From positions 152,726-216,725 of the forward strand of contig NZ_LGKP01000040.1 in the NCBI RefSeq assembly GCF_001306135.1: a stretch of DNA of 64,000 nt. The letters are read 5' to 3'. Below the pieces are notes generated by a model. The model did not search any database and had not been told where the DNA came from. It was given only the letters and a program-made list of their open reading frames with translations. Below, piece after piece: positions 4,916-42,072 of the stretch (its first letter is position 1; each line of letters starts with the position of its first letter). Source of the DNA: Herpetosiphon geysericola (GTDB lineage Bacteria > Chloroflexota > Chloroflexia > Chloroflexales > Herpetosiphonaceae). The translations under genes were made by a program, and so were the position numbers.

Positions 4916-4934
4916 GAAAGCAGCAGGAACGGGT

Positions 4935-6840: not shown

Positions 6841-6879
6841 GCACGAACTGCACGCACTGCGTGCCAGAAAGGAATCAGT

Positions 6880-7731: not shown

Positions 7732-7764
7732 CTACGCGCACGTGCGCAGCCCAAGGGGGTTTGA

Positions 7765-7923: not shown

Positions 7924-7935
7924 GGATAGGCTGCC

Positions 7936-10808: not shown

Positions 10809-10861
10809 GCCACGGTTTCGTAGCCAAGCTGAATCTTTTTATTCCGCGAAAGGATAGCCCC

Positions 10862-11245: not shown

Positions 11246-11368
11246 GTGGTGGAGGGGCCGCACGAATCGGCGATTACGATGCTGAGGTCGCCTTGACCAT
11301 GCGCTTTGGCTGGACCTATGAGCAAATTCGCCAGCAACCGGCTGGCTTTATCGATGAATTAATCGCGC

Positions 11369-14800: not shown

Positions 14801-14807
14801 GGATCGC

Positions 14808-16175: not shown

Positions 16176-16186
16176 GCGAGGCACCC

Positions 16187-17950: not shown

Positions 17951-17956
17951 GTCCGG

Positions 17957-17992
17957 CAAGAGAACCGCTTCATTAATGAGGCGGTTCTCTTG
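17957..17992 (+). terminator. hairpin terminator at the end of the tail operon
   Basis: Perfect 12-bp inverted repeat CAAGAGAACCGC ... GCGGTTCTCTTG with a 12-nt loop. Confidence 0.5.
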
Positions 17993-18493
17993 TGTTCAAG
18001 ATAAATGTCTATAGTCATGTGAGGGGATTCTTGCTATACTCATATGGTGCAGGTGATAAATAAGAGAATAAGACTACCTCGAGCTAAGTTTTGTCTTAAT
18101 AATTCAGCCCAGTAACTATACCAATGTAAATCTAAATTACCTGTTGAATAATCACGACATGAACGAATCCGAGATAGCTCGGAATGAATTTTCAAGCTGA
18201 GTAGTGAGCAAACAGTAGCATTTCATATAAGCAAATAGATATCACTGATATACGAGTAAATCACGCTTGTAGTCATAGCTGTTTAGGCGATCAACTTGGA
18301 ATTTATCCCTCTCTTGAAGTATTAGGAATCACTGGATGATCACGTCGGCTTCTGGTTAGTAAGAGGAGGGCCATCGACAAAACTGCACATCCATCAATTC
18401 ATGGTGTCTATGCCCACCTTCTCCCTAACTACCGACCATAAAATTACTAGACAGAGCCTATTATTAGAAGCTATTTGGTTGTGAGGATCTTAT

Positions 18494-21400: not shown

Positions 21401-21727
21401 CTAGCTCGTCCAAAAAGCGAAGGATTAAGCTTTCCTATTGATGGGAATAATGAGGTTGATGTTATTAGATATAATGCATCGAATGATGAAGAATTAGGCG
21501 AGGTATGGATTAATTCAAATCAAAAATTTATTGGAATCGATCAGGAAACATGGGATATGGAAATAGCAGGATATCATCCATTAGAGAACTGGCTTAAAGA
21601 ACGAGAAAATCGTACTTTATCAATGAATGATATAGTCCATTTTATGCGAATGGTGATTTCCTTAAAAGAAACACGTCGTATTATAGATGAAATAGACGCA
21701 GCAATACCCAATTGGCCAATCGAATAA
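18494..21727 (+). CDS. Type IIG restriction-modification enzyme (MmeI-like fused endonuclease, N6-adenine methyltransferase and target-recognition domain)
   Basis: N-terminal PD-x12-EAK nuclease motif (PDLIIMRQNILIGHIEAKD). MTase motif I LDPATGTATF. YYTPEPVV. Motif IV NPPY (ILGNPPYSG). Long C-terminal TRD. Gene is about 30% GC inside about 58% GC DNA. Confidence 0.7.
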   Translation: MSISTFLKKVEELLQTGVATEHSYRSALEALFLSMNHDITVINEAKRVSQGSPDLIIMRQNILIGHIEAKDVGRNLHRFIKDSERLSPKTSEGLQLNRYRNGFSNLLYTDGLSWYWFIDGNLQNDEPITIGKWDDKQKKITIFSDKFTQLEAIIKHFLENTIVISSPKHLAHRLASITHWLKDIIEKEVKLQNSQGDLRQQLEAFKKTLLPKLEPEEFADMYAQTIAYGLFAARAAQPENNSFTRFYAAQSIPKTNPFLRSLFQQIAGYDLDESIAWLVDECASLLAQTNMIEVMHDFGKSTRQEDPVIHFYETFLQSYDPALKEKRGVYYTPEPVVNFIVRSVNSILQTDFNRTMGLADDNTIILDPATGTATFLYSAIQHIYQELVSHGLQGSWNRYISENLFPRIFGFELLMAPYTIAHLKLGILLKDLGYDFETSNRLGVYLTNTLADAPDLQSSFAFANKIAEEGESANEVKHMKNVMVILGNPPYSGHSSNKGVWINNLLHGKLADGTLTENYYQFEGKRLAERNSKWLQDDYVKFIRFGEWRISKTGEGILAYICNNSFLDNRTFRGMRESLLNDFDKIYILNLHGNSKKREKTPERKVDENVFDIQQGVAISIFIKKRSSSKNRATVYYADVWGKSEEKYNFLDETNFDDINWIEIDMDKNKKSYWFIPRNFNNQKEYNLMTSILEIMKNSVVGFQTHRDKLAISFSQSEMKERMKRLMDVSINDSILFDEFKLSKKSPWSLSDARMRIIENYDEGDIIPCLYRPFDIRFIYFNDYIVDRPRTELKKHVKDKENLCLLVANQMQDDMAYTHFFVSELVTIDRTFRCSRGAAIVLPLYNYENPSKPNEVSMFDKTRKSSFKLDYINIVCQKLRLTWIDDGKGDQDATLGPEDLFHYIYAIFHSAIYRDRYIEFLETDYPHIPLTTNKTLFFSLIQLGSELVDYHLLRLPGSGGVGGNGGSKKLARPKSEGLSFPIDGNNEVDVIRYNASNDEELGEVWINSNQKFIGIDQETWDMEIAGYHPLENWLKERENRTLSMNDIVHFMRMVISLKETRRIIDEIDAAIPNWPIE

Positions 21728-21787
21728 CATCTCTATTGAAAGGTAATATACTGCGCAAGCAAGGAAATAATATACATTAGTTATCTT

Positions 21788-21831
21788 CTACACCACAAGC
21801 GCATCCCACAATCTAACCTATTGTGGTGTAG
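21788..21831. terminator. bidirectional hairpin between convergent genes
   Basis: 11-bp inverted repeat CTACACCACAA ... TTGTGGTGTAG (21788-21798 and 21821-21831). Confidence 0.45.
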
Positions 21832-21899
21832 AGGATAATATTTGGCTTAATCAAATTAGCGAATTCAAAGTTGACTATTTTATACATTTAATATCTTGC

Positions 21900-22838
21900 T
21901 TATGCCAAAACCTTTTCAAACCATCCTCCCCGGAAAAAACGATGCGGCTGCTGAATTCGTTGGCCTTGCTTCGTATACTGCGTTGTCCAGATCGGCGCAA
22001 GCACGCCCGATTCGCGCACGTCGTCGATGGTCGCAATGAGGAGTTGACTGCCGGGCCAGCCGATTTCCCATGCATCGAGCACAGCGCGTTTCCGCCGTTC
22101 GTTCGGCACCGTAAAAGCAATCAATGGCCAGCTATAGCGCCCTTCCCAATAGCGTGATCGATATAATTCACGATACGAGTTGGCTTTGCCAGTAATGATA
22201 CTCAGTTCCTCGGTGCCCCGATCGATTTCAATGGCATAGAGTTGATCGATCTGTCCTGGCTGTTGGCCAAGACCGAGCCATGGATACAACGATGACCGCT
22301 CACAATCGGGCAGTGTCGCATCAGCCCAGCGCCGCACCACGATAATGCCGTCGGCGCGTGGCCGCGCGGTTGGACCCAAATCCATCTCAATATAACTACT
22401 CATCCCCACAATTCCAGGAACATACGGTAGCGATTGAATCAAGCTGGTGATGACCTCGGCATATTCAATCTGGTGCTCAGCTTGATGTTGGGGATTGAAC
22501 ATCGTTGGAGCCAATCGTTCGCTCCCTTCTTCCAACAACGGAAAGGCCTGCTTGACGATTTCCCAGCCAAGCGGGGTGAGGCTATACAACCGGCCATGGC
22601 GCGTCCAGCCAATTGCACCACGCGGATCATAGCCATGCGATTGAAAGTGCTCACAGTAGGTCAGCAGCTTGGCATCAACCAGTTTGGCCAACGTGCGATT
22701 GACCGTTTGAATCGTCACGGTAAACGGATGGCCCCAGGCCGTGCGGAGGTGGCGCGAGAGCAATCGCCCGAGCCGAGCAATGAGTACAAGCACGTGCATC
22801 TCGATGGGATTCAAGCCAACGGGTGTATGGATAGTCAT
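21900..22838 (-). CDS. winged-HTH protein with replication-relaxation (Replic_Relax, PD-(D/E)xK-clan)-like C-terminal region
   Basis: N-terminal wHTH-like segment (MHVLVLIARLGRLLSRHLRTAW...VNRTLAKLVDAKLL). C-terminal YAIEIDRGTE and ADGIIVV acidic motifs. Assignment from memory of family motifs, not verified. Confidence 0.4.
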   Translation of the reverse strand: MTIHTPVGLNPIEMHVLVLIARLGRLLSRHLRTAWGHPFTVTIQTVNRTLAKLVDAKLLTYCEHFQSHGYDPRGAIGWTRHGRLYSLTPLGWEIVKQAFPLLEEGSERLAPTMFNPQHQAEHQIEYAEVITSLIQSLPYVPGIVGMSSYIEMDLGPTARPRADGIIVVRRWADATLPDCERSSLYPWLGLGQQPGQIDQLYAIEIDRGTEELSIITGKANSYRELYRSRYWEGRYSWPLIAFTVPNERRKRAVLDAWEIGWPGSQLLIATIDDVRESGVLAPIWTTQYTKQGQRIQQPHRFFRGGWFEKVLA

Positions 22839-22859
22839 TCAATCACTCCTCACGACAAA

Positions 22860-23855
22860 TTACGAAAGAACAAGCTTTTCTAAAAGTTTTTTCTTCTCAA
22901 TTATTTCTAATTGTCGCTGTTGGAGGTGTACACGAATAGCATTTTGGGTCGATGAAGCAACGAAGGCTCGATAATATACGGATACACCAAACATTATTCC
23001 ACTACCAAATAAGAAAGCAATAATACTGATGGTAAGAACGCTAGTTACTCCAACTGGTGATTGCTCTACAATACTGAAAAAAGAGAATATTTTATCGCCT
23101 GCGGCAAGAACACCAGCACCCATGGAAACAAGAATGCCCACAAGCGCAGCAACCGTCATTATTAGGCTAATGATGCTCACACTATGCATACGAGTTTCTC
23201 TTCGCTGAATGAGGAGATCTAAGGTTTGTTCCAACTGTATTGTCTCTATCGGATTCAATATTTCATTTAATTCGTCCTGCAAAAAAGTATAAATTTTTTC
23301 AACTGAATAATTATTTTTATTACTATTCATTTCAGCAATAGTAACAAAAATAAAATCCATACTTGTTATAAAGTATATACATATACTAATAAGTAATGAG
23401 ACTATAAAACTTGATATTTCTATAAATATCAAACTAAATATTATAGGATTCATATTTTGAATGTTTATCAAAGAAAAACTGATAGACATTATGTAGAATA
23501 AATATAACTCTATAAGAAGAAATGATTTTATTGCTAATGATCTTTTTATAAAAGAGAAAATATGGTCTCTATAGTGTATAGGCTTGAATACCTTAAAGAA
23601 AGCTATTCCTATAGACACAAAGAAAAAGGTACCCACAAGTATATCTATATTAAAATTCTTGAAAATAGCTACAAATGAGGTTTGACGTGCTATTGAAAAT
23701 GCCGAGAGTATCATTGCAATTACAAAAATCAAGGTATATATAATAATGAAATTACGCCCCTGACGAATTCCTCCTTTCCAGTCCTCATACATTTTTGAAA
23801 TACCTTTTTCTACTTCGTTTTGAAACTGAATACAGAGTTCAAGATTTGTCGCCAT
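22860..23855 (-). CDS. polytopic membrane protein (about 7 TM), AT-rich moron of unknown function
   Basis: Seven strongly hydrophobic 20-25-aa segments with a about 50-aa soluble loop in the middle. About 30% GC. No catalytic motif. Confidence 0.6.
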   Translation of the reverse strand: MATNLELCIQFQNEVEKGISKMYEDWKGGIRQGRNFIIIYTLIFVIAMILSAFSIARQTSFVAIFKNFNIDILVGTFFFVSIGIAFFKVFKPIHYRDHIFSFIKRSLAIKSFLLIELYLFYIMSISFSLINIQNMNPIIFSLIFIEISSFIVSLLISICIYFITSMDFIFVTIAEMNSNKNNYSVEKIYTFLQDELNEILNPIETIQLEQTLDLLIQRRETRMHSVSIISLIMTVAALVGILVSMGAGVLAAGDKIFSFFSIVEQSPVGVTSVLTISIIAFLFGSGIMFGVSVYYRAFVASSTQNAIRVHLQQRQLEIIEKKKLLEKLVLS

Positions 23856-24166
23856 AACGTCCTGCCCTTCATAAAACTATAGCGATCATACGCATGCGCT
23901 AATACATCGTTACACGCTTAATAGGTCTATCCTCTATTCAAAGCATCAAAGGTAGCTGCGCAGCCTGTTAAAGAATGTCGGCACGACCAAATAGCCAGTT
24001 TAGGCCATTCTAGTGGGCTATTTTCTACGTGGCGGTTTGTAGACCATCTGAACGCGATATGAATACGGTTTGAACACGATATGAATGGGCAAGAATGCCG
24101 CAAACATGCCGATCACTAAATGGCCGTGGCAGCGATATTAAGCAAGCCACGGCCTCGAATACTCGA

Positions 24167-25835: not shown

Positions 25836-26274
25836 GGGGATGCTCCTGTGGAGTGCGGCCAAAGGCCAAATATTCTGGCCACCGCGCCGAGACAATACCA
25901 AGGATGAGACCGGCTCCCCATGCCAGGGCAATGGCTGGCATGCCAGATGTCAGTTTGTAGGCGATGGGATAAAACAACCATTCGCACCACTTGTAGGCCG
26001 TAATCATGGCATCGGGAGCGAGGAAACACCCATAGCCCCACGCGGTTCGGCGCAAGGTATAGAGTTGGCCAAGGAAAAGAAAGAGCGCCAGCCCAAGACC
26101 CGCGAGGATGCCACGATAATCGCGAATACCCCAGAGCCAGTGTTGAAAGTCACTCAGCGTCGAGACCGTGGTGACAATGCTATTGCCCCAGCCCAACGTG
26201 CAGGCGATTCCTTTGACCAATTTGCGACTCGGTTCAAGGCGGCGAAGATCAAATAACACATTCGATGTGGTCAT
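25825..26274 (-). CDS. small membrane protein (Spd-like spread protein candidate)
   Basis: 149 aa with 3-4 TM segments. Overlaps the start of the FtsK-like gene by 11 nt, so operon partner. Confidence 0.45.
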   Translation of the reverse strand: MTTSNVLFDLRRLEPSRKLVKGIACTLGWGNSIVTTVSTLSDFQHWLWGIRDYRGILAGLGLALFLFLGQLYTLRRTAWGYGCFLAPDAMITAYKWCEWLFYPIAYKLTSGMPAIALAWGAGLILGIVSARWPEYLAFGRTPQEHPHGY

Positions 26275-26386
26275 CGTGTTCTCCTTTGGTATACTAGCGC
26301 TGCATCACTTTCGTGTTCTCCGGTGATGCACGCCGCCGATGCTGATTTCATCGGCGGTTTGTGTGTCAAAAGAAGCGTGGTGGTTC

Positions 26387-26780
26387 CTAGACATCTTGAT
26401 ACTCGGGATCAGGCGGCAAATCGAGCGAATCGGGCAGCGGAACCGGAGTTTGTTCAACTGGTGGTGTACCACGGTTCAACCCATGGTCAACAACGGGTGC
26501 ACTGCGGTTCAACCCATGGTCAACACTAGGGGAACGACTGTGCAACGCGTGTTCAACAGGTTTCATCAGGACTGCGAGTAAGGTGTCCCGCACGACGTGA
26601 TCATCAAGCCGCGCAACGCTGGCCAACGCATCGGCAGTGAACAACTGGATGTCTTTGCCACAGGTATGCAGACCGATAATCACGAGGGCGCGGAGCACGG
26701 CAGACTCGTTGCCTAGGCTGGCAATCATCGCACTGAGCACGCTCGAGCTGCGGGTCGTCAGTCGTTCATCAAAACTCATT
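26387..26780 (-). CDS. hypothetical protein downstream of parM (possible partition adaptor)
   Basis: 131-aa ORF whose start overlaps the parM stop (ATGA-type coupling). Contains a protein-level repeat VDHGLNR x2 encoded by DNA direct repeats. Confidence 0.35.
26472..26525. repeat. two 21-bp direct repeats CGGTTCAACCCATGGTCAACA, plus a third GTTCAAC-containing copy at 26551-26557
   Basis: Exact copies at 26472-26492 and 26505-26525. Confidence 0.6.
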
Positions 26781-27765
26781 GGCCAAACTCCTCGTAGCGC
26801 CGCGCACGGCGGGCATAACCACGCGCGATCGCGGTTTGCGGATTGGGGGCAACGATCGTTTGGCGAAAACGCTGTTGAATCGCCTGAACCAGCATGGGCA
26901 TTTCCGCACCACCCCCAGCCACGATAATCGCCGCCAGCTTCGCACCGCTGCCCCACGCCCGAACTAGCGCATCGGCGACTTGGTGGCCATTGGCCAACCA
27001 TGGCCGATCCCAGCCGGTTGGCAGATCGCATTCCTCACCCGCGACCTCCACATAGCCAGCACGCACCGCGCGATCGACTTCGTGTAAGGTCAGATCAAGG
27101 TTGTAACGCCCACTAATTTTGGTTTGCAGCTGCTGGAGTGGATTGGCGCTTCCGAGTTCAAAGCTAATCGCACTTTCCGGCACAACATTCATCGCTTGCA
27201 CAATGCAGGCATCGACGGTGTTATGGCCCAAGTCAATCACGCCAACGCGACTCAGCTCATAGCCGCTGCGGGCAATGGCTCCGCTCGGGTCGAGCAAGAC
27301 CCCATACAACGCGCCGAGCGGTTCACTAATCACCCGAATACCGGTTTTGAGCGTCGTCCCGTGGTAATACTGGGTCACAACCGCATCCCGCAGCCGCGAC
27401 CCCAAGGCCACCGCTAAGTCGCGTTCGCCGGACCAGGCGGCGGGCAGTCCGGTAACACATGCACCACCGCAGGGCTGCTTGAGGCGCTGTAAGGCTCCTT
27501 TGACGAGCGCAGGGATAATGTGGCGATCGTAGAGTCGTTGTTGCGAGCGGAGCGAGATCGGTGCGGGATGCAGCAAGGCATCCTCGCCCGTCCACCACAG
27601 CGTGCCGTGGACTTCAACCGTGGGCACATCGTGCAGATTGCCATCGGTGCTACTGGCCGGAGCCACCAGCGCAGGAAAGATAATGGTTTCTTCGTGATCG
27701 CCGGTATTGATCGTATATTTCACATAGCCATGGCCAATATTGGCCCCATGGGCAATAGCAGTCAT
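26776..27765 (-). CDS. parM: ParM/StbA-family actin-like segregation ATPase
   Basis: 329 aa. Actin-fold phosphate-binding motifs IDLGHNTVD and IIVAGGGAE. RBS GAGGAG before the ATG at 27765. Confidence 0.7.
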   Translation of the reverse strand: MTAIAHGANIGHGYVKYTINTGDHEETIIFPALVAPASSTDGNLHDVPTVEVHGTLWWTGEDALLHPAPISLRSQQRLYDRHIIPALVKGALQRLKQPCGGACVTGLPAAWSGERDLAVALGSRLRDAVVTQYYHGTTLKTGIRVISEPLGALYGVLLDPSGAIARSGYELSRVGVIDLGHNTVDACIVQAMNVVPESAISFELGSANPLQQLQTKISGRYNLDLTLHEVDRAVRAGYVEVAGEECDLPTGWDRPWLANGHQVADALVRAWGSGAKLAAIIVAGGGAEMPMLVQAIQQRFRQTIVAPNPQTAIARGYARRARRYEEFGQ

Positions 27766-27841
27766 AGAACACTCCTCTACGATGGATGGGCGTTGAATCC
27801 CATCCATCAAGAACACATCAGTGAATCGACCCGACGCAGCC

Positions 27842-28981
27842 TTAAGCAACCGATTGGATGGCACTGGTGGTGAGATCATGCGTCCACCAGTGATCAAGGT
27901 GCGTCGCAATCCACGACCGCAAATCCACGCCACACTGCACGGCCATCGTGCCAAAGTCGTGGGGATCGGGCCGCATGCGGGCAACCTCTTTGCCTTTGAA
28001 AATATCGAGCCAATACGCAGCGGCTTTATCACCGGCTGCATCGGCATCGGTTGCAATGAAGAGTGGCTGGCAGAGGCTGTACTGAACGAGCCAGCGAAAG
28101 CCACGACCTTGGGTGGTTCCAATCGCTGCCACCCCGCTGAGCGGCTGGCCATGGCGTTCAAATTGGCCAAGGGCTTGTTGGGCCACCAACGCATCGATGG
28201 GGCCTTCCACCAGAATGCCAGGGCGACCAGCGTGGAAGGTATCGATGCCATACGGCACATTGCTGCTTCCAGCAATCGTCACGTATTTCATACCCTCATC
28301 GCGGGGCGTGGTTTGGCGAATCGAGAGCTTCCAGAGCTGGCCATCACAAAACCATGGGATGACATAGCCAGCGGGCAACCACACGCCATCTTTATCGGGA
28401 TCAGTCAATCCCCACTTGTGCAGTGGACGGTAGAGCGGCTTGGGGTTATAGCCAATTGCAGCGGTGCGAAGCGTGTGATCGGTCAGGCCACGCTGGTGTA
28501 AGTAGCTGCGTGGCGAGGACTGACTATCCCCATCCTTCCACAACATATCAACCGAGTAGCCAAGGAAACTCAGAGCGGCCTGCTGCCACGTCGCTGAGGG
28601 CGGCTCACAGGCATTCGGTGGCTCAGGATCAGGGACTGCTGCTGTAAGCGAAGTCGATTGGGTCAGCGTCAGCCCCAGTGTTGTAAAGACCCCTTTGATC
28701 AAGTTCTTCCAATCAGGATGATCCTTGGTAGGAATGCTGCCGTGGTCGCGCAGGAAAACAAAATCAACATCAGAGGCCCATGGCTGGCCATCGCGACAAC
28801 TGCGACACCACCAGCGGCCACCATTGCTATCCCCATGTGGTTGCACCCGAAAGCGATCCTTGCCACCACAGAGCGGACAGGCTCCAGCCCATTCACCGCC
28901 ATTGGTCGCGGCCACTTTGCGCAGGGCGGTGCGCTGGCCAACCAACGAAAGAAACGCATCGCCCGAAAGATGTTCAATCAT
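27842..28981 (-). CDS. DNA primase (CHC2 zinc finger plus Toprim, DnaG-like)
   Basis: CPLCGG...RFRV...WWCRSC zinc ribbon. Toprim ILVEGPIDAL and IATDADAAGD. RBS GGAGG. Confidence 0.8.
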   Translation of the reverse strand: MIEHLSGDAFLSLVGQRTALRKVAATNGGEWAGACPLCGGKDRFRVQPHGDSNGGRWWCRSCRDGQPWASDVDFVFLRDHGSIPTKDHPDWKNLIKGVFTTLGLTLTQSTSLTAAVPDPEPPNACEPPSATWQQAALSFLGYSVDMLWKDGDSQSSPRSYLHQRGLTDHTLRTAAIGYNPKPLYRPLHKWGLTDPDKDGVWLPAGYVIPWFCDGQLWKLSIRQTTPRDEGMKYVTIAGSSNVPYGIDTFHAGRPGILVEGPIDALVAQQALGQFERHGQPLSGVAAIGTTQGRGFRWLVQYSLCQPLFIATDADAAGDKAAAYWLDIFKGKEVARMRPDPHDFGTMAVQCGVDLRSWIATHLDHWWTHDLTTSAIQSVA

Positions 28982-28996
28982 TGAAACCTCCCAAGA

Positions 28997-29267
28997 GAAG
29001 TGTCATGAAGTGTCATAGAAGTGTCATGCTGCCTAAACTGTCGGTTTAGGGCTTTCCAATGGGATAAAACGGAGAAGTGTCATAGTGTCATAAGTGTCAT
29101 GTATTTTTTCAGTCGTGTGGGTTCTCTCCAGCCTCGCGTACATGTTCCATATTAAATTGGACATGTCCCCTTATGACACTATGACACTTCTCAAGAAAGG
29201 CGCTCTGGGAGTGGATTTTTAGCGTCATAAACCGTTTATGACACTTCATGACACTTCTGACACTTCT
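28997..29267. repeat. iteron array, putative replication origin
   Basis: Six direct copies of (GA)AGTGTCAT at 28997-29100 and five inverted copies ATGACAC(TTC) at 29173-29267. They flank a 70-bp central region. Confidence 0.6.
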
Positions 29268-30862
29268 CATGCGCTATATCTCCACAATTGCATCGTTCGA
29301 CCATTGGCGGCTTTGGTCTCAAGCACGTCAATTTGGCCAGCGAGGCGTAAGACTTCTAAGATTTCGGTGATTTCTTTTTTGGATTGATTGGTCTGGCGAC
29401 ACAGATCGCGCACCGTCAATCCCGAAAGCGACTCTTTCAGAACGGCCAGCAGCTTATCGCCCAGCTTGGTTTCTTCACTCTGAATCCCATCGCTCCAAAT
29501 GCGGTGCAAGTCGCTGCGCCAGCGCTCGACAATCGTGATCGCACGTTTGAGATGATCGAGCTGCATCACCACCGGTAATTCGGGGCAGTCCATCGCGGCC
29601 AGAATCATGGCCACCCGCAGGACGTGCCCAGGGAAACGGGCATAACTGGCATAGAGCGTGTCAGGTAGCCCATTGTTCGGCAGATCAAAGCGCAACACCT
29701 TGTCATAGCGCTTCCACAACGTCATCACGCCAGGCGCGAGCCGAATCGAACTGGGCGGATGCTCGTTATAAATCCGCACAAAGCGCTTGATATTCTCTTC
29801 CGGCACATCATCGACCAATTCGGCCTCTGGCTTCGGAAAGAGCGCATCGAGCGCCTGCAAGTCCTGAATCAAGCGTTCAGGCATCACCAGCTCGTCAGGA
29901 AACTCGGCATAGCATGGTGGGGCATCGGGAATCAGAATCGCGAAGCGACTCCACAACCCTTCGTCCCACAGCTTTTCGCTGCGCAAGTGATCTTCGATAT
30001 TCTTGGGCGTGGTTGCGCCCAGAAACGAGAGACTGGCATCGCGAATCGTGGTGCGGCCATGGGTGATCGTTTCATGGGCCAAATACTCAGGGTTATCAAA
30101 CAACTTGAGTAACAGCGAGAGCAGCTCGGCCATATACTCTTTTTTCATATCGCTGAACAAGAACCCTGCTTCGTCGAGTAGCCATGCCCGTTGAGCCGCT
30201 TGGGCACGGGCAAGCAGCCATTGCTCACGGTCATAATCACTGTAGCTGTCCAGCTTATCGGGAATGACGGTCGAAAACTGCTGAAGCAGCGACTGGGGCG
30301 TGCTTTTGTCGGGTAAGAGCAAGTGGCCAAGGCCAGCGCGCCGTAGCACCCGCTCGACAACCTTCATCGCGGTCGATTTGGCATAGCGCCCTGGTGGGGC
30401 AACAAATAGCGCATAAATATTCGGGTAATAGTAAGTTTCACCAATTTGGAGATACAACCGCCGCGCGATCACGGTGGCGGCAAGGAAGAGACCCGCCGCC
30501 TCATGGAAAATCGGTGGCGTGACCGGACTCGCTTGGCTGGCATAGTCGATAAATGTATCAAGCCACTGCCCACATACGCCCTGCTGCCGGATGGTTTTCG
30601 TAAGTTCACTCGGCAGCGGCGGCATAGTTCGTAAGACGGTTGGGGCAGGCTGGTCAACGAGCAAGGCCGCCACCCGACTATCCACCCGAATCGCGGTTTC
30701 CAGTGCGGTTTGCACGGCAGGCGCACCGCCATGCTCAAAGGCATACACTAAACTTTGCATCATGGCTAACCATTCGCCCCAATCACGGGTCAGGTCAATC
30801 GTCTGGCCTGCGAGCAACTGCTGCAGCGCAGTGCGCACCTGCACATAGAGTGGAGTTGTCAT
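29267..30862 (-). CDS. DUF3987-like replicative helicase/loader protein with C-terminal wHTH
   Basis: Degenerate Walker A APPGRYAKST. Walker B LLDEAGF. About 530 aa. Downstream of the integrase, as in many tRNA-integrated islands. Confidence 0.55.
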   Translation of the reverse strand: MTTPLYVQVRTALQQLLAGQTIDLTRDWGEWLAMMQSLVYAFEHGGAPAVQTALETAIRVDSRVAALLVDQPAPTVLRTMPPLPSELTKTIRQQGVCGQWLDTFIDYASQASPVTPPIFHEAAGLFLAATVIARRLYLQIGETYYYPNIYALFVAPPGRYAKSTAMKVVERVLRRAGLGHLLLPDKSTPQSLLQQFSTVIPDKLDSYSDYDREQWLLARAQAAQRAWLLDEAGFLFSDMKKEYMAELLSLLLKLFDNPEYLAHETITHGRTTIRDASLSFLGATTPKNIEDHLRSEKLWDEGLWSRFAILIPDAPPCYAEFPDELVMPERLIQDLQALDALFPKPEAELVDDVPEENIKRFVRIYNEHPPSSIRLAPGVMTLWKRYDKVLRFDLPNNGLPDTLYASYARFPGHVLRVAMILAAMDCPELPVVMQLDHLKRAITIVERWRSDLHRIWSDGIQSEETKLGDKLLAVLKESLSGLTVRDLCRQTNQSKKEITEILEVLRLAGQIDVLETKAANGRTMQLWRYSA

Positions 30863-30972
30863 GTATCTATCCTCGGTGCTGCGGGAGGATACTCACCACA
30901 GCACACTACACTTACAAAACTGGGAAGGACTAGGATGCTGCCCCAATCACCGGCGGCGATTGGGGCACCTGA

Positions 30973-31278
30973 TTACGTCGACTCTGGCGCTTTGTCTTCG
31001 CCTTGCGCTGCATCAATCAAGAGGCGTTGAATTCGTTCCTGGTTGGCCTCGATCTCTGCGAGCAGCAGGGCGATCTTGGTCAGGATAAGTTCGACGGCTT
31101 CGGGATTGTTCAAGTGGTAGCGTTGATGCACCACTTGGTTGAGCAACTCTTTGGCTCGGATAGCTTGCTTCGACGATTGCGCGGCGTTCGCCAGCGCTTC
31201 GAGTCGATGTTCGTTCACCACGTTCGGCCAACGCAGTCGTCGCCGTGGCATCCACATCCCTTTCTTGGTGGTCGCCAT
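30973..31278 (-). CDS. small helical protein (possible excisionase/regulator)
   Basis: 101-aa ORF with sensible helical sequence. Overlaps the tail of the next ORF in another frame. Confidence 0.35.
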   Translation of the reverse strand: MATTKKGMWMPRRRLRWPNVVNEHRLEALANAAQSSKQAIRAKELLNQVVHQRYHLNNPEAVELILTKIALLLAEIEANQERIQRLLIDAAQGEDKAPEST

Positions 31279-31582
31279 TCACGAGGTCAAAGACAACCGC
31301 ACGGGTTTGCTGGCGACGTTTGATCATGCGCCAGACTTGCCACGTAATAATGACCCCACCACCAATGCCAAAGCTGGCGATGATCTGCTGCTCATACTGG
31401 GGCCAGCTGGCGTTCGGCGTAAGGCGGATGGCGATCCCTGCGGCAGTCACGCACAACAGGGTTCCGACAACCACTTCAATCCACGTCCAATCTGGTTCCA
31501 AGTAGTGCTTGTAATGCTCAAGCATCACGGCATACAGCATCGTGGCCATGGCCAAACCGATACCAATATTGATGGGCATAGA
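31013..31582 (-). CDS. small membrane protein (3' extent uncertain)
   Basis: ATG at 31582. Three hydrophobic helices in the first about 100 aa. The C-terminal about 80 aa of this frame look like low-complexity out-of-frame translation of the 30973-31278 ORF. Confidence 0.35.
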   Translation of the reverse strand, partial: SMPINIGIGLAMATMLYAVMLEHYKHYLEPDWTWIEVVVGTLLCVTAAGIAIRLTPNASWPQYEQQIIASFGIGGGVIITWQVWRMIKRRQQTRAVVFDLVNGDHQERDVDATATTALAERGERTSTRSAGERRAIVEASYPSQRVAQPSGASTLPLEQSRSRRTYPDQDRPAARRDRGQPGTNSTPLD

Positions 31583-31675
31583 TCCCCCTATCAGCAGGTT
31601 TTTTGTCAAAAACCTGCTGACTTTCTGTACACTTTTTCCCTTGTTTCTACCGGGATAGGTGGGCATACTGGAGGC

Positions 31676-32539
31676 TTATAAGCATGACTCCACCTTCTCG
31701 AGGAGGTTCACGCCTTGCCGATTTTGGGTCGCCTCATGGGATGAGAGTTGTGCATAGTGCAGAGACATTTGAATCGTTTCATGGCCCATCAATACCCGTA
31801 GACTTTCTGCATCAAGGCCTTTCTTGATCAGTTCGCGGGCGAAGGTGGCACGAAAGGAGTGAATCAAACGCCGCACATCATTGCGGATTTCCGCGTCGGA
31901 GGCTAAGCGATCGAAGCTCTGGTGTACGCCGCTAATCGTCAGCGTTTTTTGCTGGCGATGGCTGACAAACAACGCAGGGTTCGTATCCGTCCGACTGGCG
32001 ATGTAGGTTCGAAGGACTTCTTGGGTCACGGATGAAATCCAGATATATCGATCCTTGCTGCCTTTGCCAAGAATCATGGCGCAGCCTTCCGAGTCAAAGC
32101 TGGTCCGACGGAGTTGAATCAGTTCACTGACCCGAACGCCGGTATCCAGTAAGACACAGAGCATGGCTTTTTCACGAAGCTCGGCAACCAGCAGGAGGCG
32201 CTTAATTTGATCCATCGTGTAATGGGCAGGTAAGCGCTTGGGTAATCGGGGTTTGAGTTTATCGGTATTTACTGGCTGAATATAGCCTTCTTCAGCAAGC
32301 CAGCGCACGAGGATGAGTGCATCGTTGAGATAGCTATAGTGGCTGGCAATGCTTAAGTTTTGTTGGGCTAAGTACGCACTGTAGGCCCGCAATAACGCCC
32401 GACTGAGCACCTGATTCGGTTGCTCAAGCACCCAAGCGCCAAAGCGTCCTAACCGAATTCGGTAGGTGGTGATGGTTGCAGGGCTGCGGCGTTCGGCGAC
32501 TTTTGCGGACAAATATTCTTCAATCCATTGGCTAATCAT
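31676..32539 (-). CDS. int: tyrosine recombinase/integrase (XerC/D-like)
   Basis: Catalytic residues R (LLDTGVRVSEL), K, HxxR (HSFRATF), H..Y (LMGHETIQMSLHY). Lies 0.9 kb from the att duplicate. Confidence 0.85.
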   Translation of the reverse strand: MISQWIEEYLSAKVAERRSPATITTYRIRLGRFGAWVLEQPNQVLSRALLRAYSAYLAQQNLSIASHYSYLNDALILVRWLAEEGYIQPVNTDKLKPRLPKRLPAHYTMDQIKRLLLVAELREKAMLCVLLDTGVRVSELIQLRRTSFDSEGCAMILGKGSKDRYIWISSVTQEVLRTYIASRTDTNPALFVSHRQQKTLTISGVHQSFDRLASDAEIRNDVRRLIHSFRATFARELIKKGLDAESLRVLMGHETIQMSLHYAQLSSHEATQNRQGVNLLEKVESCL

Positions 32540-33460
32540 ACGAAATGACCTCGATCTATCGCGTTATCCCCGAAGGGATAGCGTGTGCGTTCGCAAATAC
32601 TCGACTCGAGGCCGCGCGGAGCGGAAAGAGTATGTGATGGGATACCTCTGCAGGTGGTGCTAAAGGGGTATCTCATTACAGGTCTTCAGACACACTGCGT
32701 TAAGGGGTGCTTGCACAACCAGCAATGGCGGTCGCCATTTTTTGGGTATAGCAAAGCAACCTACACGTTTGGTATTGGCAAATGGCTTTGGCTAGGTTGA
32801 TCTTCCAGAATTGGAAGCAACACAAAGCCAACCGTCATTCACCAATCGGTGTGAGGAAGACAGGAAACACACTGAGTCAAGGTCATTGGTATAACACTCA
32901 TCCATCGTAACCTTGCTTTGTGTCGATGGAGAGTGATGATCGTCAATCTCCGAACGATCATCTTTATGTATTAGGAAATGCCGGAGCGCGTTAATGGTTG
33001 AAGGCCGCAAGCGGCGTTCAGGAATAGGGAAGTCGGTGGGCAGGATTCCCAAGACGACATATGGTAAGCTTCGTGGATTCAATGATCCTGAATGCCCATG
33101 AAGCGTGGTAGATAAGCAGCGTGTCTTTGCATCAGTCCTGCTTATCTAACAAGTGGCGTGTCTAGCATCAACCACTTGTATTGGGTTTCTAGCAACGAGT
33201 GCATGCCAGATCCAAGGGAAGGCTATTGCTTTAATAAAGCACCCGATAACAATAGCCATGTTGGAAAGCTCGATGTGTCGAGTCAAGTTCGGGGTTAGCG
33301 TACCATATGCCAACCATGCAGAACGTTAACGCTGTATAAGAAAATGCTTTTGTAGTGACAGTGCATTGCAGCAATGTGGTGTTGCTGGCGAGCAGAAGCC
33401 AATAATCCTCCTTCAAAGCAGCCTGGTGAAACAGGGTGCTTGCTTTGCATTTTAGGCAAA

Positions 33461-33506
33461 CCTGTTAATCAATGGGTCCTAGGTTCGAGTCCTAGTCAGG
33501 GAGCCA
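33461..33506 (+). other. 46-nt duplicate of tRNA-Asn 3' half (anticodon loop to CCA), candidate attR core
   Basis: CTGTTAATCA...GTCCTAGGTTCGAGTCCTAGTCAGGGAGCCA is identical over 31 nt (and nearly over 46) to the 3' half of the tRNA gene 21 bp downstream. No 5' half is present. Confidence 0.6.
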
Positions 33507-33527
33507 CTTCTTTTTACAACTTGATAT

Positions 33528-33603
33528 TCCCTGATAGCTCAGTTGGTAGAGCGGTTGACTGTTAATCAGCATGTCCTAGGTTCGAGTCCTAGTCAGGGAG
33601 CCA
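33528..33603 (+). tRNA. tRNA-Asn (GTT)
   Basis: Cloverleaf with anticodon loop CTGTTAA. Close to the E. coli tRNA-Asn sequence. CCA encoded. Confidence 0.85.
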
Positions 33604-33608
33604 AAAAG

Positions 33609-33644
33609 ATCAACGCCCGCCTGAAATTTCAGCTGGGCGTTGAT
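33609..33644 (+). terminator. hairpin downstream of tRNA-Asn
   Basis: ATCAACGCCC ... GGGCGTTGAT 10-bp inverted repeat. Confidence 0.45.
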
Positions 33645-33836
33645 GATTTAAACCCATATGGTATCACTTAATAACTTCGCCACATCGCTGAACACCAATT
33701 AGCCAGCTGCCGATTGCGGTACACTATAACCCAGCATTATGCCCAATGATCAAAGATGCTAGGTTTTGCTGACGAGCGCTTAAAACCCTTGCTTCGCTGC
33801 ATGGGCAATCGTCGGCTCGTACCAAGAAAGGATGTT

Positions 33837-34879: not shown

Positions 34880-36106
34880 CTACTGCACGTCACGCCCGAC
34901 AAGCGGCAAATAGAGTTTCCAACTTGGCGGCGTTGTGGTTGGCGATGTGATGGTTACGGTTGTTGTTGGAGTGCTGGTTGGAGTGGTGGTAGTGGGCGTG
35001 GTTGATGGTGGAGTGCTGGTTGGAGTGGTGGTGGTTGGAGTCACGCTTGGTGGAGTGGTTGCTGTTGGCGTGATGGTTGCTGTCGGCGTAATTGTTACAA
35101 TTGGCGTAATCGTTGCCGTTGGCGTGACGGTTGCTGTAATCGTTGCTGTTGGCGTAATTGTCACAATTGGCGTGACCGTTGCCGTTGGTGTAACAGTCGC
35201 CGTTGGTGTAACCGTTGCGGTTGGCGTGACGGTTGCGGTTGGTGTAATCGTTGCCGTTGGCGTGACGGTTGCCGTCGGTATGATCGTTGCGCTTGGCGTG
35301 ACGGTTGCCGTTGGCACAGGAATGTCAGCAAACAAGATCATGTATAAGGCGCTATTGTCTCCAACTTGGCGTAAATCGTTTGCCAGGAAATTGAAGTCGG
35401 TTTGCCCATTAACATTGCGATAATAGCCATAAGTTGGAGCGCCTAACGGTACAGAACCAGCAGCAAAGGCAGGAGCACCTGTACCGCCACGAATTGCTGT
35501 AGTCAGGTTCGTCGTATCAACAAGGCCAGCACCGCTATCGCCACGAATATTAATCGTCACACCATGATTGCTGAGGCCACTCAGGGTCAGCGGGTTGGTC
35601 AACGGAATTGAGATATCGTAAAGTCCTCCCGCTACGAGGCTGCGACTCCCAAAATCAAAGCTTAGTAAGCCGCCAACAGGGCTTGTAAACACTGTTGTAT
35701 TAGTAGCATTGAAACTATCCCAGAATTGAATCCGAACTTGGATATTGGTATAGGTAGTTGTGGAGAGCGAAACCAACCCAAACTGCAATGCAGTAATATC
35801 GCTTGCTGTTGCCAAATTGAATGGTTGCCCCATATAGGTATGGGGTGCGTTTGCAAAAGTAATAAAATCATCTGCCCCAGTGATTGTATCGAATATTGGA
35901 GTGATTACCTGCGGCAAACGAGCATTCGTCAGTAACGTGCCACTAGGCTTGAGTTGGCCCAGTGATGTGTCGAGCGCAGCTTCAGGCAAGCCTTGAGCTT
36001 GACGTGTAGCACTGGTTGTCGTTGGCGAAACTGCCAAGCTGGCAAGCAACGCTAACAGACACCCAACAGCACTCAGAATTCCCAACTGGCGATTGATTCG
36101 ATCCAT
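34880..36106 (-). CDS. secreted protein with C-terminal Thr/Pro-rich tandem repeats
   Basis: N-terminal signal/TM (LGILSAVGCLLALLASLAV). C-terminal (TATVTP)n and (TTTPTS)n repeats. RBS AGGAGGT before the ATG at 36106. Confidence 0.55.
   Translation of the reverse strand: MDRINRQLGILSAVGCLLALLASLAVSPTTTSATRQAQGLPEAALDTSLGQLKPSGTLLTNARLPQVITPIFDTITGADDFITFANAPHTYMGQPFNLATASDITALQFGLVSLSTTTYTNIQVRIQFWDSFNATNTTVFTSPVGGLLSFDFGSRSLVAGGLYDISIPLTNPLTLSGLSNHGVTINIRGDSGAGLVDTTNLTTAIRGGTGAPAFAAGSVPLGAPTYGYYRNVNGQTDFNFLANDLRQVGDNSALYMILFADIPVPTATVTPSATIIPTATVTPTATITPTATVTPTATVTPTATVTPTATVTPIVTITPTATITATVTPTATITPIVTITPTATITPTATTPPSVTPTTTTPTSTPPSTTPTTTTPTSTPTTTVTITSPTTTPPSWKLYLPLVGRDVQ
34930..35330. repeat. 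18-bp-periodic tandem repeats (GGCGTGACGGTTGCGGTT-like) encoding the TP-rich linker
   Basis: Directly visible periodic DNA. Confidence 0.6.
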
Positions 36107-36322
36107 GGATACCTCCTGCATGTTACCTAGCTTCAACTGAAGCCACGTAACTAATTAGCAATGATGAGGCCATAGAGTCAATAGCATATGCGCAGCATAG
36201 ACCATAAGTCCTTCTAGGAGGGCATCAATCCAACCAATTGGGCTGCTCGCGCTGAAGGTAAATCGATTCAAAATGATGATATGGTGCAATTGCAGTAGCC
36301 TTTACGATTACAATTTACCTAG

Positions 36323-36387: not shown

Positions 36388-38169
36388 ATGTATCAAATTG
36401 AAACCTTATATTTGCCAGATTCAATCAAAAGCAGTTATCAAAATGTCGAAAGTCAGCCACTTACTCAACTCGATAGCCTTTCAAGGGTTAATATTTTAGT
36501 TGGCGAAAATAATGCAGGTAAAAGTCGGTTTATGCGGTTATTGGCCGAAGAGTCTAATTTTAAACTAAAACATACTAAAATTAATGAATTCAACTACAAA
36601 ATTGAACAAGAAATTAATAGATTAATTGATATATTTGATATTCATGAAGTTGATAGAATTGAGGCAATAACAAGGATTAATATAGAGAATTGTATTCATT
36701 ATCTGAAGGAAATAAATAGTATTTATACAAATCCGAAATATACAACATACAATAATATTTTTAATATTATTGAGACCATAAAAAACGATAATAGAATATC
36801 TTCTATTGCAAATATAATTATAAATCTACTTAATCAAGTACAGATTAAGTTTAATAAAAATATATATATACCTACTCTTCGTAGTTTACGCCCTTTAGAT
36901 AGTGAATATACGGATTTTTATCAAAATCAAACTATTGAGAGTTATTTTAAATCCGCAATTCATAAACCAGAAATTTATACAGGTTTAGGGATATATGCCA
37001 AACTAAGAATTTATCTACTTGGGGATAATGTAAAACGTAAAAAAATCAGAGAATATCAAGAATTTATTTCACATACTTTATTCGAAGACAAAGAAGTAAC
37101 TTTGATTCCGAGAGATGAAGAAAAACATATTTTTGTAAAAATTGGTAATGAAAAAGAACGACCAATTTATGATCTTGGTGATGGAATTCAATCAGCAATC
37201 ATTTTAACCTTTTTGCCATTTGTGAGCCTTGAAAATTGTATTTTCTTTATCGAAGAGCCAGAGCTTTTTCTACACCCAAGTATGCAGCGCAAAATTCTGG
37301 AGTTCTATCACTCGTTGGATCGTCATTTATTTTTTATGACAACTCACTCGAATCACTTGCTTGATATTACGATTGATATTCCTGAGATTTCAATCTATAA
37401 CTTTCGAAAATCACTTACTAGTAGTGATGATGATGAAACACCTCATTTCATTGTTGAAAATGTTGATAACAATCAAACTAGTTCATTAGAATTATTGGGA
37501 GTACGAAATTCATCAGTCTTATTAGTCAATGCCACAATCTGGGTTGAAGGAATAACCGACCGTTGGTATTTACGTGAGATGCTCCAAATGTATATGGAGA
37601 GTCAAAAAGATTTGAAACAGTTTGTTGAAGATATGCATTATATGTTTGTTGAGTATGGCGGTGGAAATATTACTCATTTCTCATTTGTAGATATGGAAGA
37701 TAAACTTATTACAATAGAACGACTATGTGCGAAAGCCTTTGTTATCATTGACCAAGATGGCGATGCTAAATTAAAACGTAAAGAAGAGCTTAAAGCTAAA
37801 CTTGGCGATACTTTACTTATTTTACCTTGTCGGGAAATTGAAAATAGCCTACCATCCGAGGTCATTCGCTCAGTTGTAATTGAATATGAGACATCTATAC
37901 AAAACCCAAACCCCGAAACAAATTCTTTTGTGTATGAGGATTACCAAAATGAATCGTTAGGGGAATTTATCGAAGATCATGTTATAAAAGGTGAGAAACA
38001 TCGTCGAGGTTCTTATAAAGCTGATTCAGGAACTATTACCGATAAACTTGGTTTTTGTACAAAAGCCTTAGCATATTTGAAAAATCTTACATTCGATCAA
38101 CTACCTTCTACAATTCAAAAAGAAATAGAGGGCATATATAAGTTTATTGCAAAGCTGAATCCTAGCTAA
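36388..38169 (+). CDS. OLD-family nuclease (N-terminal ABC-type ATPase plus C-terminal Toprim), standalone
   Basis: Walker A GENNAGKS. ABC signature/Walker B region IEEPELFLHP. H-loop TTHSNH. Toprim WVEGITDRW ... FVIIDQDGD. About 30% GC. Confidence 0.7.
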   Translation: MYQIETLYLPDSIKSSYQNVESQPLTQLDSLSRVNILVGENNAGKSRFMRLLAEESNFKLKHTKINEFNYKIEQEINRLIDIFDIHEVDRIEAITRINIENCIHYLKEINSIYTNPKYTTYNNIFNIIETIKNDNRISSIANIIINLLNQVQIKFNKNIYIPTLRSLRPLDSEYTDFYQNQTIESYFKSAIHKPEIYTGLGIYAKLRIYLLGDNVKRKKIREYQEFISHTLFEDKEVTLIPRDEEKHIFVKIGNEKERPIYDLGDGIQSAIILTFLPFVSLENCIFFIEEPELFLHPSMQRKILEFYHSLDRHLFFMTTHSNHLLDITIDIPEISIYNFRKSLTSSDDDETPHFIVENVDNNQTSSLELLGVRNSSVLLVNATIWVEGITDRWYLREMLQMYMESQKDLKQFVEDMHYMFVEYGGGNITHFSFVDMEDKLITIERLCAKAFVIIDQDGDAKLKRKEELKAKLGDTLLILPCREIENSLPSEVIRSVVIEYETSIQNPNPETNSFVYEDYQNESLGEFIEDHVIKGEKHRRGSYKADSGTITDKLGFCTKALAYLKNLTFDQLPSTIQKEIEGIYKFIAKLNPS

Positions 38170-38181
38170 AGGTCTCACACT

Positions 38182-38718
38182 ATGCAGCAACCTACGTGGC
38201 AGATTAATACTTATCAACAAAGATGGCATGTGCGTTGGCACCCAGCCGATAGCGAGCCAGCAGGCAAAGCTCATGGCTCAGCTGGTATTTGCCTCACGCC
38301 TGAACGCCACATTGTAGTGGTGAGCCAAAATGGGCGTGATTGGGATGTACCAGCTGGCCGCAGCGAGGCGGGCGAATCGTGGGCAGCAACCTTGCAGCGT
38401 GAGGTGGCCGAAGAAGCATGTGCGATAGTTCAAAGTGCCAGCTTATTGGGCTTTTGCCAAAGCCAATGTTTGGACGGGGCAGAACAAGGGCTAATCTTAG
38501 TGCGCGCATTTTGGTTGGCCCACGTTACAATCCAAGCATGGCAGCCTCAATTCGAAATGATCGAACGCCGGATTATTGCTCCAAGCCAAATTTGGAGCTA
38601 CCTACCGCAGGCCTATCTACCAATCTATCGCCATGTATTGCAACTCGCCGCAGAATTCAGCTCGGCAACACAACAATCGCGAAGCTTATTTTCTAGCCCC
38701 GAAGCCCACAAAGGATAG
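38182..38718 (+). CDS. NUDIX hydrolase
   Basis: Nudix box GRSEAGESWAATLQREVAEEAC. Host-like GC. Confidence 0.7.
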   Translation: MQQPTWQINTYQQRWHVRWHPADSEPAGKAHGSAGICLTPERHIVVVSQNGRDWDVPAGRSEAGESWAATLQREVAEEACAIVQSASLLGFCQSQCLDGAEQGLILVRAFWLAHVTIQAWQPQFEMIERRIIAPSQIWSYLPQAYLPIYRHVLQLAAEFSSATQQSRSLFSSPEAHKG

Positions 38719-41854: not shown

Positions 41855-41859
41855 AAAAC

Positions 41860-42072
41860 CCCACATAGAAAGGCAGAAGTCAAAAATCAAAAGTCAAAAT
41901 GGCCTTTGCTATTAAACATAAAGCCAATCAGCATCCCAAATGAACTCAGAAGTCAAAAATCAAAAGTCAAAATAACGTATCGGTTGCTATTCAGTTAGCG
42001 GTAATCCTATCAACATTTTGAGAAATATCAAAGGACTAAGCATTTTTGCCTTTTGATTTCTGCCCTTTGACT
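41860..42072. repeat. intergenic short-repeat cluster (AGTCAAAA(A)TCAAA, TTTTGCCTTTTGATTTCTGCCCTTTGACTT)
   Basis: Visible repeated words, same family as elsewhere. Confidence 0.4.

Follow-up and report, generated by a model that had tools for sequence, protein, structure and literature searches.

An opposed-iteron block beside a DUF3987 helicase gene as the probable replication origin of a Herpetosiphon prophage

Introduction

Does the cluster of short repeats between a primase gene and a DUF3987 helicase gene of Herpetosiphon geysericola mark the start of replication, and which protein reads it? The repeats lie in the 64-kb stretch of DNA analysed here (the window). Phages, satellites and integrative elements commonly encode a DUF3987 helicase. 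The family comprises MCM-related SF6 helicases with a C-terminal wHTH, often partnered by a primase (PMC4889955), and one member has been proven to act as an ATP-dependent helicase and to bind its primase (PMC11724360). In the literature that mentions the family, as far as its accessible text extends, we came across no cognate origin reported for a DUF3987 helicase.

Results

The host element is an integrated prophage

Prophage-type genes occupy positions 1001–18000 of the window (about 59% GC) and encode an endolysin, the large terminase, portal, major head, head–tail adaptor and tail proteins. An AT-rich insert with a Type ISP restriction–modification gene lies at 18–24 kb. From 21.9 to 32.5 kb all genes are on the minus strand and follow one another as Replic_Relax, several unknown ORFs, a 130-aa protein, an Alp/ParM-type ATPase, the primase, the repeats, the DUF3987 gene, two small ORFs and a recombinase. 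The identified genes of this segment are:

21900–22838, minus strand: Replic_Relax protein gene
26776–27765, minus strand: actin-like Alp/ParM-type ATPase gene
27842–28981, minus strand: primase gene, 379 aa, with a Zn ribbon (residues 32–65) and a Toprim domain (256–333)
29267–30862, minus strand: DUF3987 (PF13148) helicase gene, 531 aa, 80.7 bits in Pfam against a cut-off of 27
31676–32539, minus strand: XerC/D-like tyrosine recombinase gene

The 3' end of tRNA-Asn is duplicated, with a 45-nt copy (33462–33506) located 21 nt ahead of the intact tRNA-Asn gene (33528–33603). To the right of the copy the GC content falls to about 50%. The phage gene set, the tRNA-Asn copy and the drop in GC content therefore identify the host element as an integrated full-size prophage of H. 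geysericola, at least 32 kb long and adjoining tRNA-Asn. No att repeat for the left prophage end was found between 1–2500 and 32400–33800, and a BLASTN search of a plasmid collection with 26000–33000 gave no match. The architecture had been attributed to phage-plasmids and satellites. This attribution does not hold for the element, which is an integrated prophage; the closest documented precedent for the block is SaPI Rep/ori (PMC9371898).

Twelve sites in two facing sets fill the intergenic gap

An exact search for AGTGTCA returned 14 matches in the window, 11 of them within 28999–29264. Six start on the plus strand (28999, 29009, 29020, 29076, 29084 and 29093) and five on the minus strand (29174, 29182, 29239, 29249 and 29258), in full agreement with the six direct and five inverted copies of the original prediction. 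Shuffled windows contain on average 5.08 copies, none of the 100 shuffles reaching 14, and under a Poisson model the chance of 11 copies in 270 nt is estimated at about 1e-26. The three matches outside the block are isolated singles, within chance expectation, and no second cluster is present in the window.

The count of eleven is correct for exact copies and omits one site. With one mismatch allowed, a twelfth site is observed at 29221–29228, where the variant AGCGTCAT lies on the plus strand, inverted with respect to its neighbours. Likewise, the repeat had been described as a word of 7–10 bp around a 70-bp spacer, and proves to be an 8-nt word, AGTGTCAT, around a spacer of 72 nt. The block occupies the 285-nt gap between the stop of the DUF3987 gene (29267) and the start of the primase gene (28981), both on the minus strand, and thus sits exactly where it had been placed. 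Its elements are:

28999–29006, 29009–29016 and 29020–29027, plus strand: outer primase-proximal array, three copies of AGTGTCAT spaced by 10 and 11 nt
29032–29050: palindrome CCTAAAC-TGTCG-GTTTAGG in the primase-side spacer
29052–29068, minus strand: conserved box TTTATCCCATTGGAAAG (gene sense), a single occurrence in the window
29076–29083, 29084–29091 and 29093–29100, plus strand: inner primase-side array, three copies of AGTGTCAT spaced by 8 and 9 nt
29101–29172: centre, 72 nt between the inner arrays
29139–29158: candidate unwinding element, with the lowest stability of all 20-mers in the module
29173–29180 and 29181–29188, minus strand: inner helicase-side array, two copies of AGTGTCAT in opposite orientation
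29221–29228, plus strand: variant site AGCGTCAT, an AGCGT variant found at this position in all 11 modules and aligned as an invariant ACGCT
29238–29245 and 29248–29255 (AGTGTCAT) and 29257–29264 (AGTGTCAG), minus strand: outer helicase-proximal array

Altogether, three plus three sites on one strand are followed by the centre and then by two sites, the single variant and three sites facing the opposite way, a 6+6 layout with a spacing of 8–11 nt within the arrays. The outer helicase-proximal array begins 3 nt past the helicase stop codon. At the other end, 17 nt separate the outer array from the primase ATG, an interval that holds a GGGAGG ribosome-binding site.

A 53-codon ORF overlies the repeats (29109–29270, minus strand). 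It was rejected as a gene on account of its unconserved length, which is 26 codons where the helicase is 98% identical and 25–90 codons in other relatives, when the ORF is not absent altogether. The region is therefore non-coding. An Rfam scan of 28700–29600 at E ≤ 1 identified no RNA family. The promoter scan gave one weak sigma-70-like match, at the primase-proximal edge and running over the primase start codon, and the terminator scan one match, on the plus strand and opposite to the genes; neither exceeds what is obtained with shuffled sequences.

Homologous modules share the site map and change their word in concert

Homologous modules are present at 10 related loci (L001, L003/L014, L004, L005, L006, L007, L008, L009, L044 and L045), the helicases of which are 44–98% identical to that of the window. 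With the word proper to each locus, the site maps superimpose within about 2 bp across the eleven modules. In relative positions, the map reads as follows:

about 20, 30 and 40: three forward sites
about 57: one reverse site, always the AGCGT variant
about 98 and 106: two forward sites, followed by a centre of about 80 nt
about 186, 195 and 203: three reverse sites
about 233: a forward AGCGT variant, in six loci only
about 259–280: two or three reverse sites

The three sites of the outer primase-proximal array recur in the 10 related loci. At the position of the palindrome (29032–29050), the distant modules L004–L007, L044 and L045 carry an extra AGCGT-type iteron in the opposite orientation. 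The TTTATCCCATTGGAAAG box is retained with small changes in all related modules and is found in both spacers of L004–L007. A search of a viral collection for TTTATCCCWTTGGAAAG, from the conserved box, returned 17 loci, with iterons nearby only in a Herpetosiphon aurantiacus prophage contig; the other loci look like chance matches. No good DnaA box was seen on the module of the window, and CTATCCACA is present only in L005 and L007. A DnaA-box reading of the conserved box sets TTATCCCAT against TTATCCACA, with three differing positions.

In contrast to the geometry, the iteron word changes between loci, shifting in concert in all copies of a locus as AGTGT followed by CAT, CAC, CAG, TGA, AGA or AGC:

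window: AGTGTCAT
H. llansteffanensis (L008) and H. aurantiacus (L009): AGTGTCAC
L001: AGTGTCAG/T
L003/L014: a degenerate GTCAC form
L004: AGTGTTGA
L005, L007 and L044: AG(T/C)GTAGA
L006 and L045: AG(T/C)GTAGC

Concerted change of the word within a fixed geometry is expected of sites that are read by a co-evolving protein, and not of a coding or RNA element.

The surroundings of the module differ between the loci. It is located between the helicase and primase genes in the window, L001, L003, L004, L008, L009 and L014. In L005, L006, L007 and L044 these two genes adjoin each other, with the module immediately upstream of the helicase gene; the gene before the module encodes a UvrD-like helicase in L005 and RecT in L007 and L044, and in L006 it is a small unannotated ORF. 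The module of L045 comes after one fused gene that joins a Toprim-like domain (DUF3854) to DUF3987. The Alp and 130-aa genes are found only in the window, L001, L008, L009, L013 and L014, and an integrase only in the closer loci. The DUF3987 helicase gene alone is a constant neighbour of the module.

A pac site, an att or other recombination site, an oriT or a small mobile inverted-repeat element present by chance might also display the terminal inverted symmetry over about 285 nt and the position relative to the helicase gene that varies between clades. The pac site of P1, for instance, has short repeats on both sides of its cleavage region. Nevertheless, we regard any element of this kind as extremely improbable here. 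There is one repeat cluster in the window and one module copy per related locus, always adjoining the helicase gene. The terminase genes lie about 25 kb from the block, which is internal to the integrated prophage and thus not an intact attP. No integrase is adjacent in L005–L007, L044 and L045, and the covariation described below is with a residue of the helicase. An oriT serving the Replic_Relax gene was considered separately and rejected, this gene being 6 kb away and found in no related locus.

The centre holds a conserved weak-duplex pocket

The module has a GC content of 43%, compared with about 57% in the flanking genes. Its centre contains a T-run pocket (29103–29110), a GC-rich core (29110–29139) and a conserved block (29133–29170). 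The latter, 38 nt long, is near-invariant in the five closest loci; in gene sense it reads GGGGACATGTCCAATTTAATATGGAACATGTACGCGAG, an imperfect palindrome around AATTTAATAT. The remaining half of the centre varies freely among these loci.

The least stable 25-mers of 28800–29500 lie at 29082–29114 and 29138–29166, that is, at both edges of the centre. Their stabilities range from −27.8 to −28.4 kcal/mol, compared with −35.6 ± 3.0 kcal/mol across the 24–33 kb segment. The core between these two weak pockets has 63% GC, and the primase-side half of the centre 57–63% GC. The least stable 20-mer occupies the same relative position (115–129 of about 300) in 11 of the 11 homologous modules, in each case 10–25 nt beyond the helicase-side inner array. 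The fixed place of this 20-mer is in line with the earlier view that opposed arrays flank an unwinding region, with the reservation that the centre is only partly AT-rich.

The helicase is the likely reader of the iterons

The DUF3987 helicase of the window shows 100% identity to a Herpetosiphon geysericola protein. Its Walker A lysine (K162) and Walker B residues (D230 and E231) are invariant in 19 homologues. An AF2 model built on these 19 homologues (mean pLDDT 86.4) points to an MCM-like AAA+ fold. Structurally, the model matches MCM subunits best and Orc1/Cdc6 in complex with origin DNA next. A C-terminal winged helix is predicted at residues 463–531 (nt 29270–29476), with helices 463–477, 484–491 and 495–507 and a beta wing formed by 511–517 and 523–529. 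At the level of sequence, a search of the helicase profile against PDB sequences at E ≤ 1 gave only two weak matches, OR280 and a dsRNA-binding/adenosine deaminase protein. A tblastn search of cultured phages returned four matches with 23–27% identity, uninformative on origins.

Base 8 of the iteron defines three classes in the five closest loci: T in the window (11 T and 1 G), a G/T mix in L001, and C in L008 (9 C and 3 T), L009 (all C) and L003. Only one of the 531 helicase columns separates the three classes, column 492, which is Asn in the window, Thr in L001 and His in all three members of the C class; the sample comprises five related sequences in three classes, with mixed iteron copies in L001 and L008. 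In the model, Asn492 (codon 29387–29389) is located in the turn ahead of the third helix, the recognition helix 495–507. The helicases of the window and L008 differ at 11 positions, 492 among them. No column of the primase (379 columns), the Alp ATPase or the 130-aa protein separates the base-8 classes in the five closest loci. In general, Asn is preferred with A:T and His with G:C, and the pairings of Asn492 with T and of His with C fit these preferences. Taken together, the covariation and the structural model make it likely that the iterons are read by the C-terminal winged helix of the DUF3987 helicase, rather than by the primase.

The 130-aa gene, which occupies the position of ParR, follows the primase gene together with the Alp gene in one apparent operon. 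This arrangement would suit a parC-like centromere, in which the small protein encoded after the Alp ATPase binds the repeats and the excised prophage is partitioned like a plasmid. R1 parC also consists of two repeat sets, placed around a promoter. In R1 parC, however, all repeats run in one direction, whereas those of the block face each other. Moreover, the module is present in L005, L006, L007, L044 and L045, where tblastn or the called genes revealed neither an Alp nor an adaptor gene in the DNA fetched for these loci, and the changes in the iterons are tracked neither by the Alp ATPase nor by the 130-aa protein. A conserved 10-bp palindrome, GATGGATGGG-8 nt-CCCATCCATC, located directly upstream of alp (27781–27808), is a better candidate for the site of the Alp system. 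A centromere therefore appears very unlikely to us, and reading of the repeats by the helicase remains the preferred view.

Remote relatives place their repeats after the helicase gene

In remote loci with helicases 29–38% identical to that of the window, the densest 7-mer cluster of the locus is found just after the helicase stop in 22 of 23 cases, an interval that represents about 6% of each locus. Some of these loci duplicate each other, which brings the independent cases down to nearer 17. Copies in both orientations are present in all clusters except those of L038 and L039. In several loci the words are unrelated to that of the window (ACCGACA, ACTGACA, TTGTCAC, TGCAGAC and GTGTAGC). Remote relatives with a common word have a common turn and helix sequence, and those with a different word a different one, a comparison that is confounded by relatedness. 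Downstream of the cluster lies a primase gene in several loci and a small gene, HU/IHF-like as judged from its sequence, in others. In L010 (Abditibacterium, 38% helicase identity) no repeat cluster was found near the helicase gene, and the genes are tightly packed.

These data also bear on a purely regulatory role, in which a protein, possibly the helicase, would bind the repeats as an operator or promoter element and control the downstream primase, actin-like ATPase and other genes, with replication starting elsewhere. No space remains for a separate promoter, because the module of each locus extends right up to the ribosome-binding site of a co-directional gene, and a regulatory role is thus inseparable from an origin role. 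Iteron origins often double as autoregulatory sites, and a dual function in origin activity and regulation is possible. Regulation by itself is an unlikely explanation. The scan placed no sigma-70-like promoter within the module, and an operator would not need as many as twelve sites, arranged as two facing sets about a conserved weak-duplex pocket. Furthermore, the downstream gene varies by locus (primase, helicase, an unknown ORF or an HU/IHF-like gene), in contrast to the position of the cluster right after the helicase stop in the remote relatives.

Discussion

We consider it probable that a temperate phage integrated next to tRNA-Asn starts its replication at the block 28999–29264, and that this origin operates through the DUF3987 helicase. 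This extends the putative origin of the original prediction by comparative evidence, namely the 10 conserved modules, the concerted words, the linkage to the helicase gene, residue 492 and the remote loci.

In the mechanism that we propose, the MCM-like AAA+ DUF3987 helicase would recognise the 8-bp AGTGTCAT at the twelve sites through its C-terminal winged helix. Because six sites on each side face each other, two helicase rings may assemble around the centre in opposite orientation, with no separate loader. The weak-duplex pocket at 29139–29158, beside the helicase-side inner array, would melt first and the rings would pass onto the single strands. The Zn-ribbon/Toprim primase encoded just downstream would then lay the first primers, leading to bidirectional replication. 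In this scheme we infer the binding, the number and orientation of the rings, the site of melting, the priming and the direction of replication from the DNA and from predicted folds. The model does not account for three conserved features, namely the TTTATCCC-TTGGAAAG box, one half of the centre and the constant AGCGT at the inverted site.

By analogy, the locus is best read as a SaPI-type origin with a putatively self-loading helicase. SaPI Rep is a self-loading AAA+ helicase-initiator in which a C-terminal winged helix reads 6–12 short iterons located after the helicase ORF (PMC9371898). The SaPI ori has an AT-rich centre with at least two iterons per side in opposite directions and a primase alongside, and two hexamers are proposed to load on it (PMC9371898). 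The present locus is similar in that the site adjoins the helicase ORF (upstream of it in L005–L007 and L044), that twelve opposed iterons are present and that the helicase has a predicted C-terminal winged helix. As to the AT-rich centre, the least stable 20-mer is located there in every module, but half of the centre is GC-rich, as described above.

There are also clear differences. The helicase of the window has no sequence relatives in the PDB profile search, unlike its fold, which matches MCM subunits. Cryo-EM structures of SaPI Rep have been reported (PMC9371898); their presence among the searched PDB sequences is not assured, which limits what this search says on kinship between the two proteins. 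SaPI iterons measure 5–6 bp as opposed to the 8 bp observed here, where the 6+6 map is fixed and includes an inverted AGCGT variant and an extra conserved box. The origin would lie between the helicase and primase genes, or upstream of the helicase gene in the sister clade, and the host is a full Chloroflexota prophage rather than a satellite.

A second precedent is SCCmec Cch2, a helicase that binds AAGTG repeats just downstream of its own gene, is proposed to load itself and has a dedicated primase (PMC7581432). Unlike the module of the window, that system has a D5-family helicase and only three direct iterons, with no facing arrays (PMC7581432). The principle being established for SaPI Rep and SCCmec Cch2, the present locus brings a new protein family and a new phylum to a known design, and does not represent a new mechanism.

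Other iteron systems are more distant. Rep_3/RepA-type origins (P1 oriR and pSC101) rely on a dimeric winged-helix Rep, direct iterons of 17–22 bp and DnaA boxes, in contrast to the 8-bp facing iterons of the window, and no Rep-type initiator was found among the ORFs neighbouring the block. The P4 alpha protein combines primase, SF3 helicase and C-terminal winged-helix DNA-binding domain in one polypeptide and has octamer iterons (TGTTCACC). P4 requires a second cis site, crr, several kb away, whereas the window has no second AGTGTCA cluster. In archaeal origins, Orc1/Cdc6 binds inverted ORB elements that flank an unwinding element, and MCM is the separate helicase. The presence of an AAA+ winged-helix protein and of inverted elements is reminiscent of the window. 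However, initiator and helicase are separate in archaea and would be one protein here, and the elements of the window are much shorter and more numerous.

Within the same Pfam family, the pAgo-associated AgaPH is an ATP-dependent helicase that binds the adjacent primase and has a small C-terminal domain (PMC11724360). It differs from the present pair in its AEP PrimPol partner, as opposed to a DnaG-type primase, and in its N-terminal PriCT domain, and the accessible part of its report describes no origin or recognition sites (PMC11724360). The one characterised DUF3987 helicase runs 5'–3', unlike MCM and SaPI Rep.

A more specific idea, which we put forward tentatively and hold to be possible rather than probable, is that the fixed 6+6 map acts as a template that loads two six-membered MCM-like rings head to head and loader-free, with one winged helix per iteron and residue 492 setting one base. 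If this were true, the prophage family would be a minimal bacterial model of MCM-type helicases that recognise and open an origin alone, and the module would amount to a portable origin cassette whose place relative to the helicase gene has shifted in evolution.

For the DUF3987 family more broadly, the locus and its relatives provide a candidate origin and a conserved site map, made up of the 6+6 sites, the inverted AGCGT variant, the weak-duplex pocket and the conserved box. They also provide a testable specificity rule, in which Asn492 would go with T, His with C and Thr with G/T, and a rule for annotation, which is to seek facing short repeats right after a DUF3987 gene. Origin recognition by an MCM-like helicase of a bacterial virus thereby becomes directly testable.

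Prophage junction and putative cargo

The prophage lies beside a tRNA-Asn gene. A 45-nt copy of the tRNA-Asn 3' end (33462-33506, 91% identical) ends 21 nt ahead of the intact gene (33528-33603). The 87-nt 'tRNA-Lys' that ARAGORN called at positions 33420-33506 probably represents a hybrid of phage and tRNA sequence at the prophage junction. No att copy matching this junction was found in positions 1-2500, and the other end of the prophage is therefore probably located to the left of the window. In IMG/VR, the H. aurantiacus relative measures 34.3 kb.

Within the prophage, positions 18000-24000 form an AT-rich insert with 29-36% GC, compared with 57-60% around it. It carries two genes:

18494-21727, Type ISP restriction-modification gene (1077 aa)
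22860-23855, 331-aa ORF without a family match

The insert has the appearance of defence cargo (a moron). A second AT-rich patch (36388-38718, 33% GC) is found outside the prophage and encodes an AAA_21/AAA_15 ATPase of 593 aa and a NUDIX protein of 178 aa; it is possibly a small defence island near the tRNA genes.

Other repeats in the window

Long tandem repeats of 18, 36, and 54 nt occupy positions 34963-35315, with about 15 units and 69-73% matches. They sit within a 418-aa ORF (34880-36136, minus strand) that shows a strong GC skew and has no Pfam match, and probably represent a repetitive coding region. Weaker 7-mer clusters are observed at 9421-9900 (AGCCACC, six copies per 300 nt) and 41781-42160 (AAGTCAA, five copies per 300 nt).

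The Alp locus

A perfect 10-bp palindrome, GATGGATGGG-8 nt-CCCATCCATC (27781-27808), lies within the 76 nt that separate the primase stop codon from the start of Alp, the actin-like ATPase gene. It is kept in the close relatives L001, L008 (H. llansteffanensis), and L009 (H. aurantiacus), while the bases flanking it diverge. The palindrome may serve the Alp system as an operator or centromere; alternatively, it may form an RNA hairpin. The ParR position, following Alp, is occupied by a small gene:

26387-26779, minus strand, 130-aa ORF

The N-terminal 75 residues of its product are conserved among relatives and the tail is variable. Three 33-nt tandem repeats within the ORF (26451-26549) encode repeated VDHGLNRxxPxV peptides in this C-terminal tail.

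Possible accessory features at related putative origins

In L005 and L007, two loci with the module upstream of the helicase gene, the module centre contains CTATCCACA (7820-7850 and 4350-4375, respectively), one mismatch away from the DnaA-box consensus TTATCCACA. Read by eye, the module of the window showed no comparable match.

In three remote relatives, a small gene immediately succeeds the iteron cluster that follows the helicase gene:

L011 5388-5684, iteron cluster and small gene
L012 5550-5840, iteron cluster and small gene
L024 4388-4640, iteron cluster and small gene

Judged from its sequence, with the motif IPGIGKIQ or IPYIGKVQ, the small gene product looks like a DNA-bending protein of the HU/IHF type, and this putative protein may act as an origin accessory factor in these phages.
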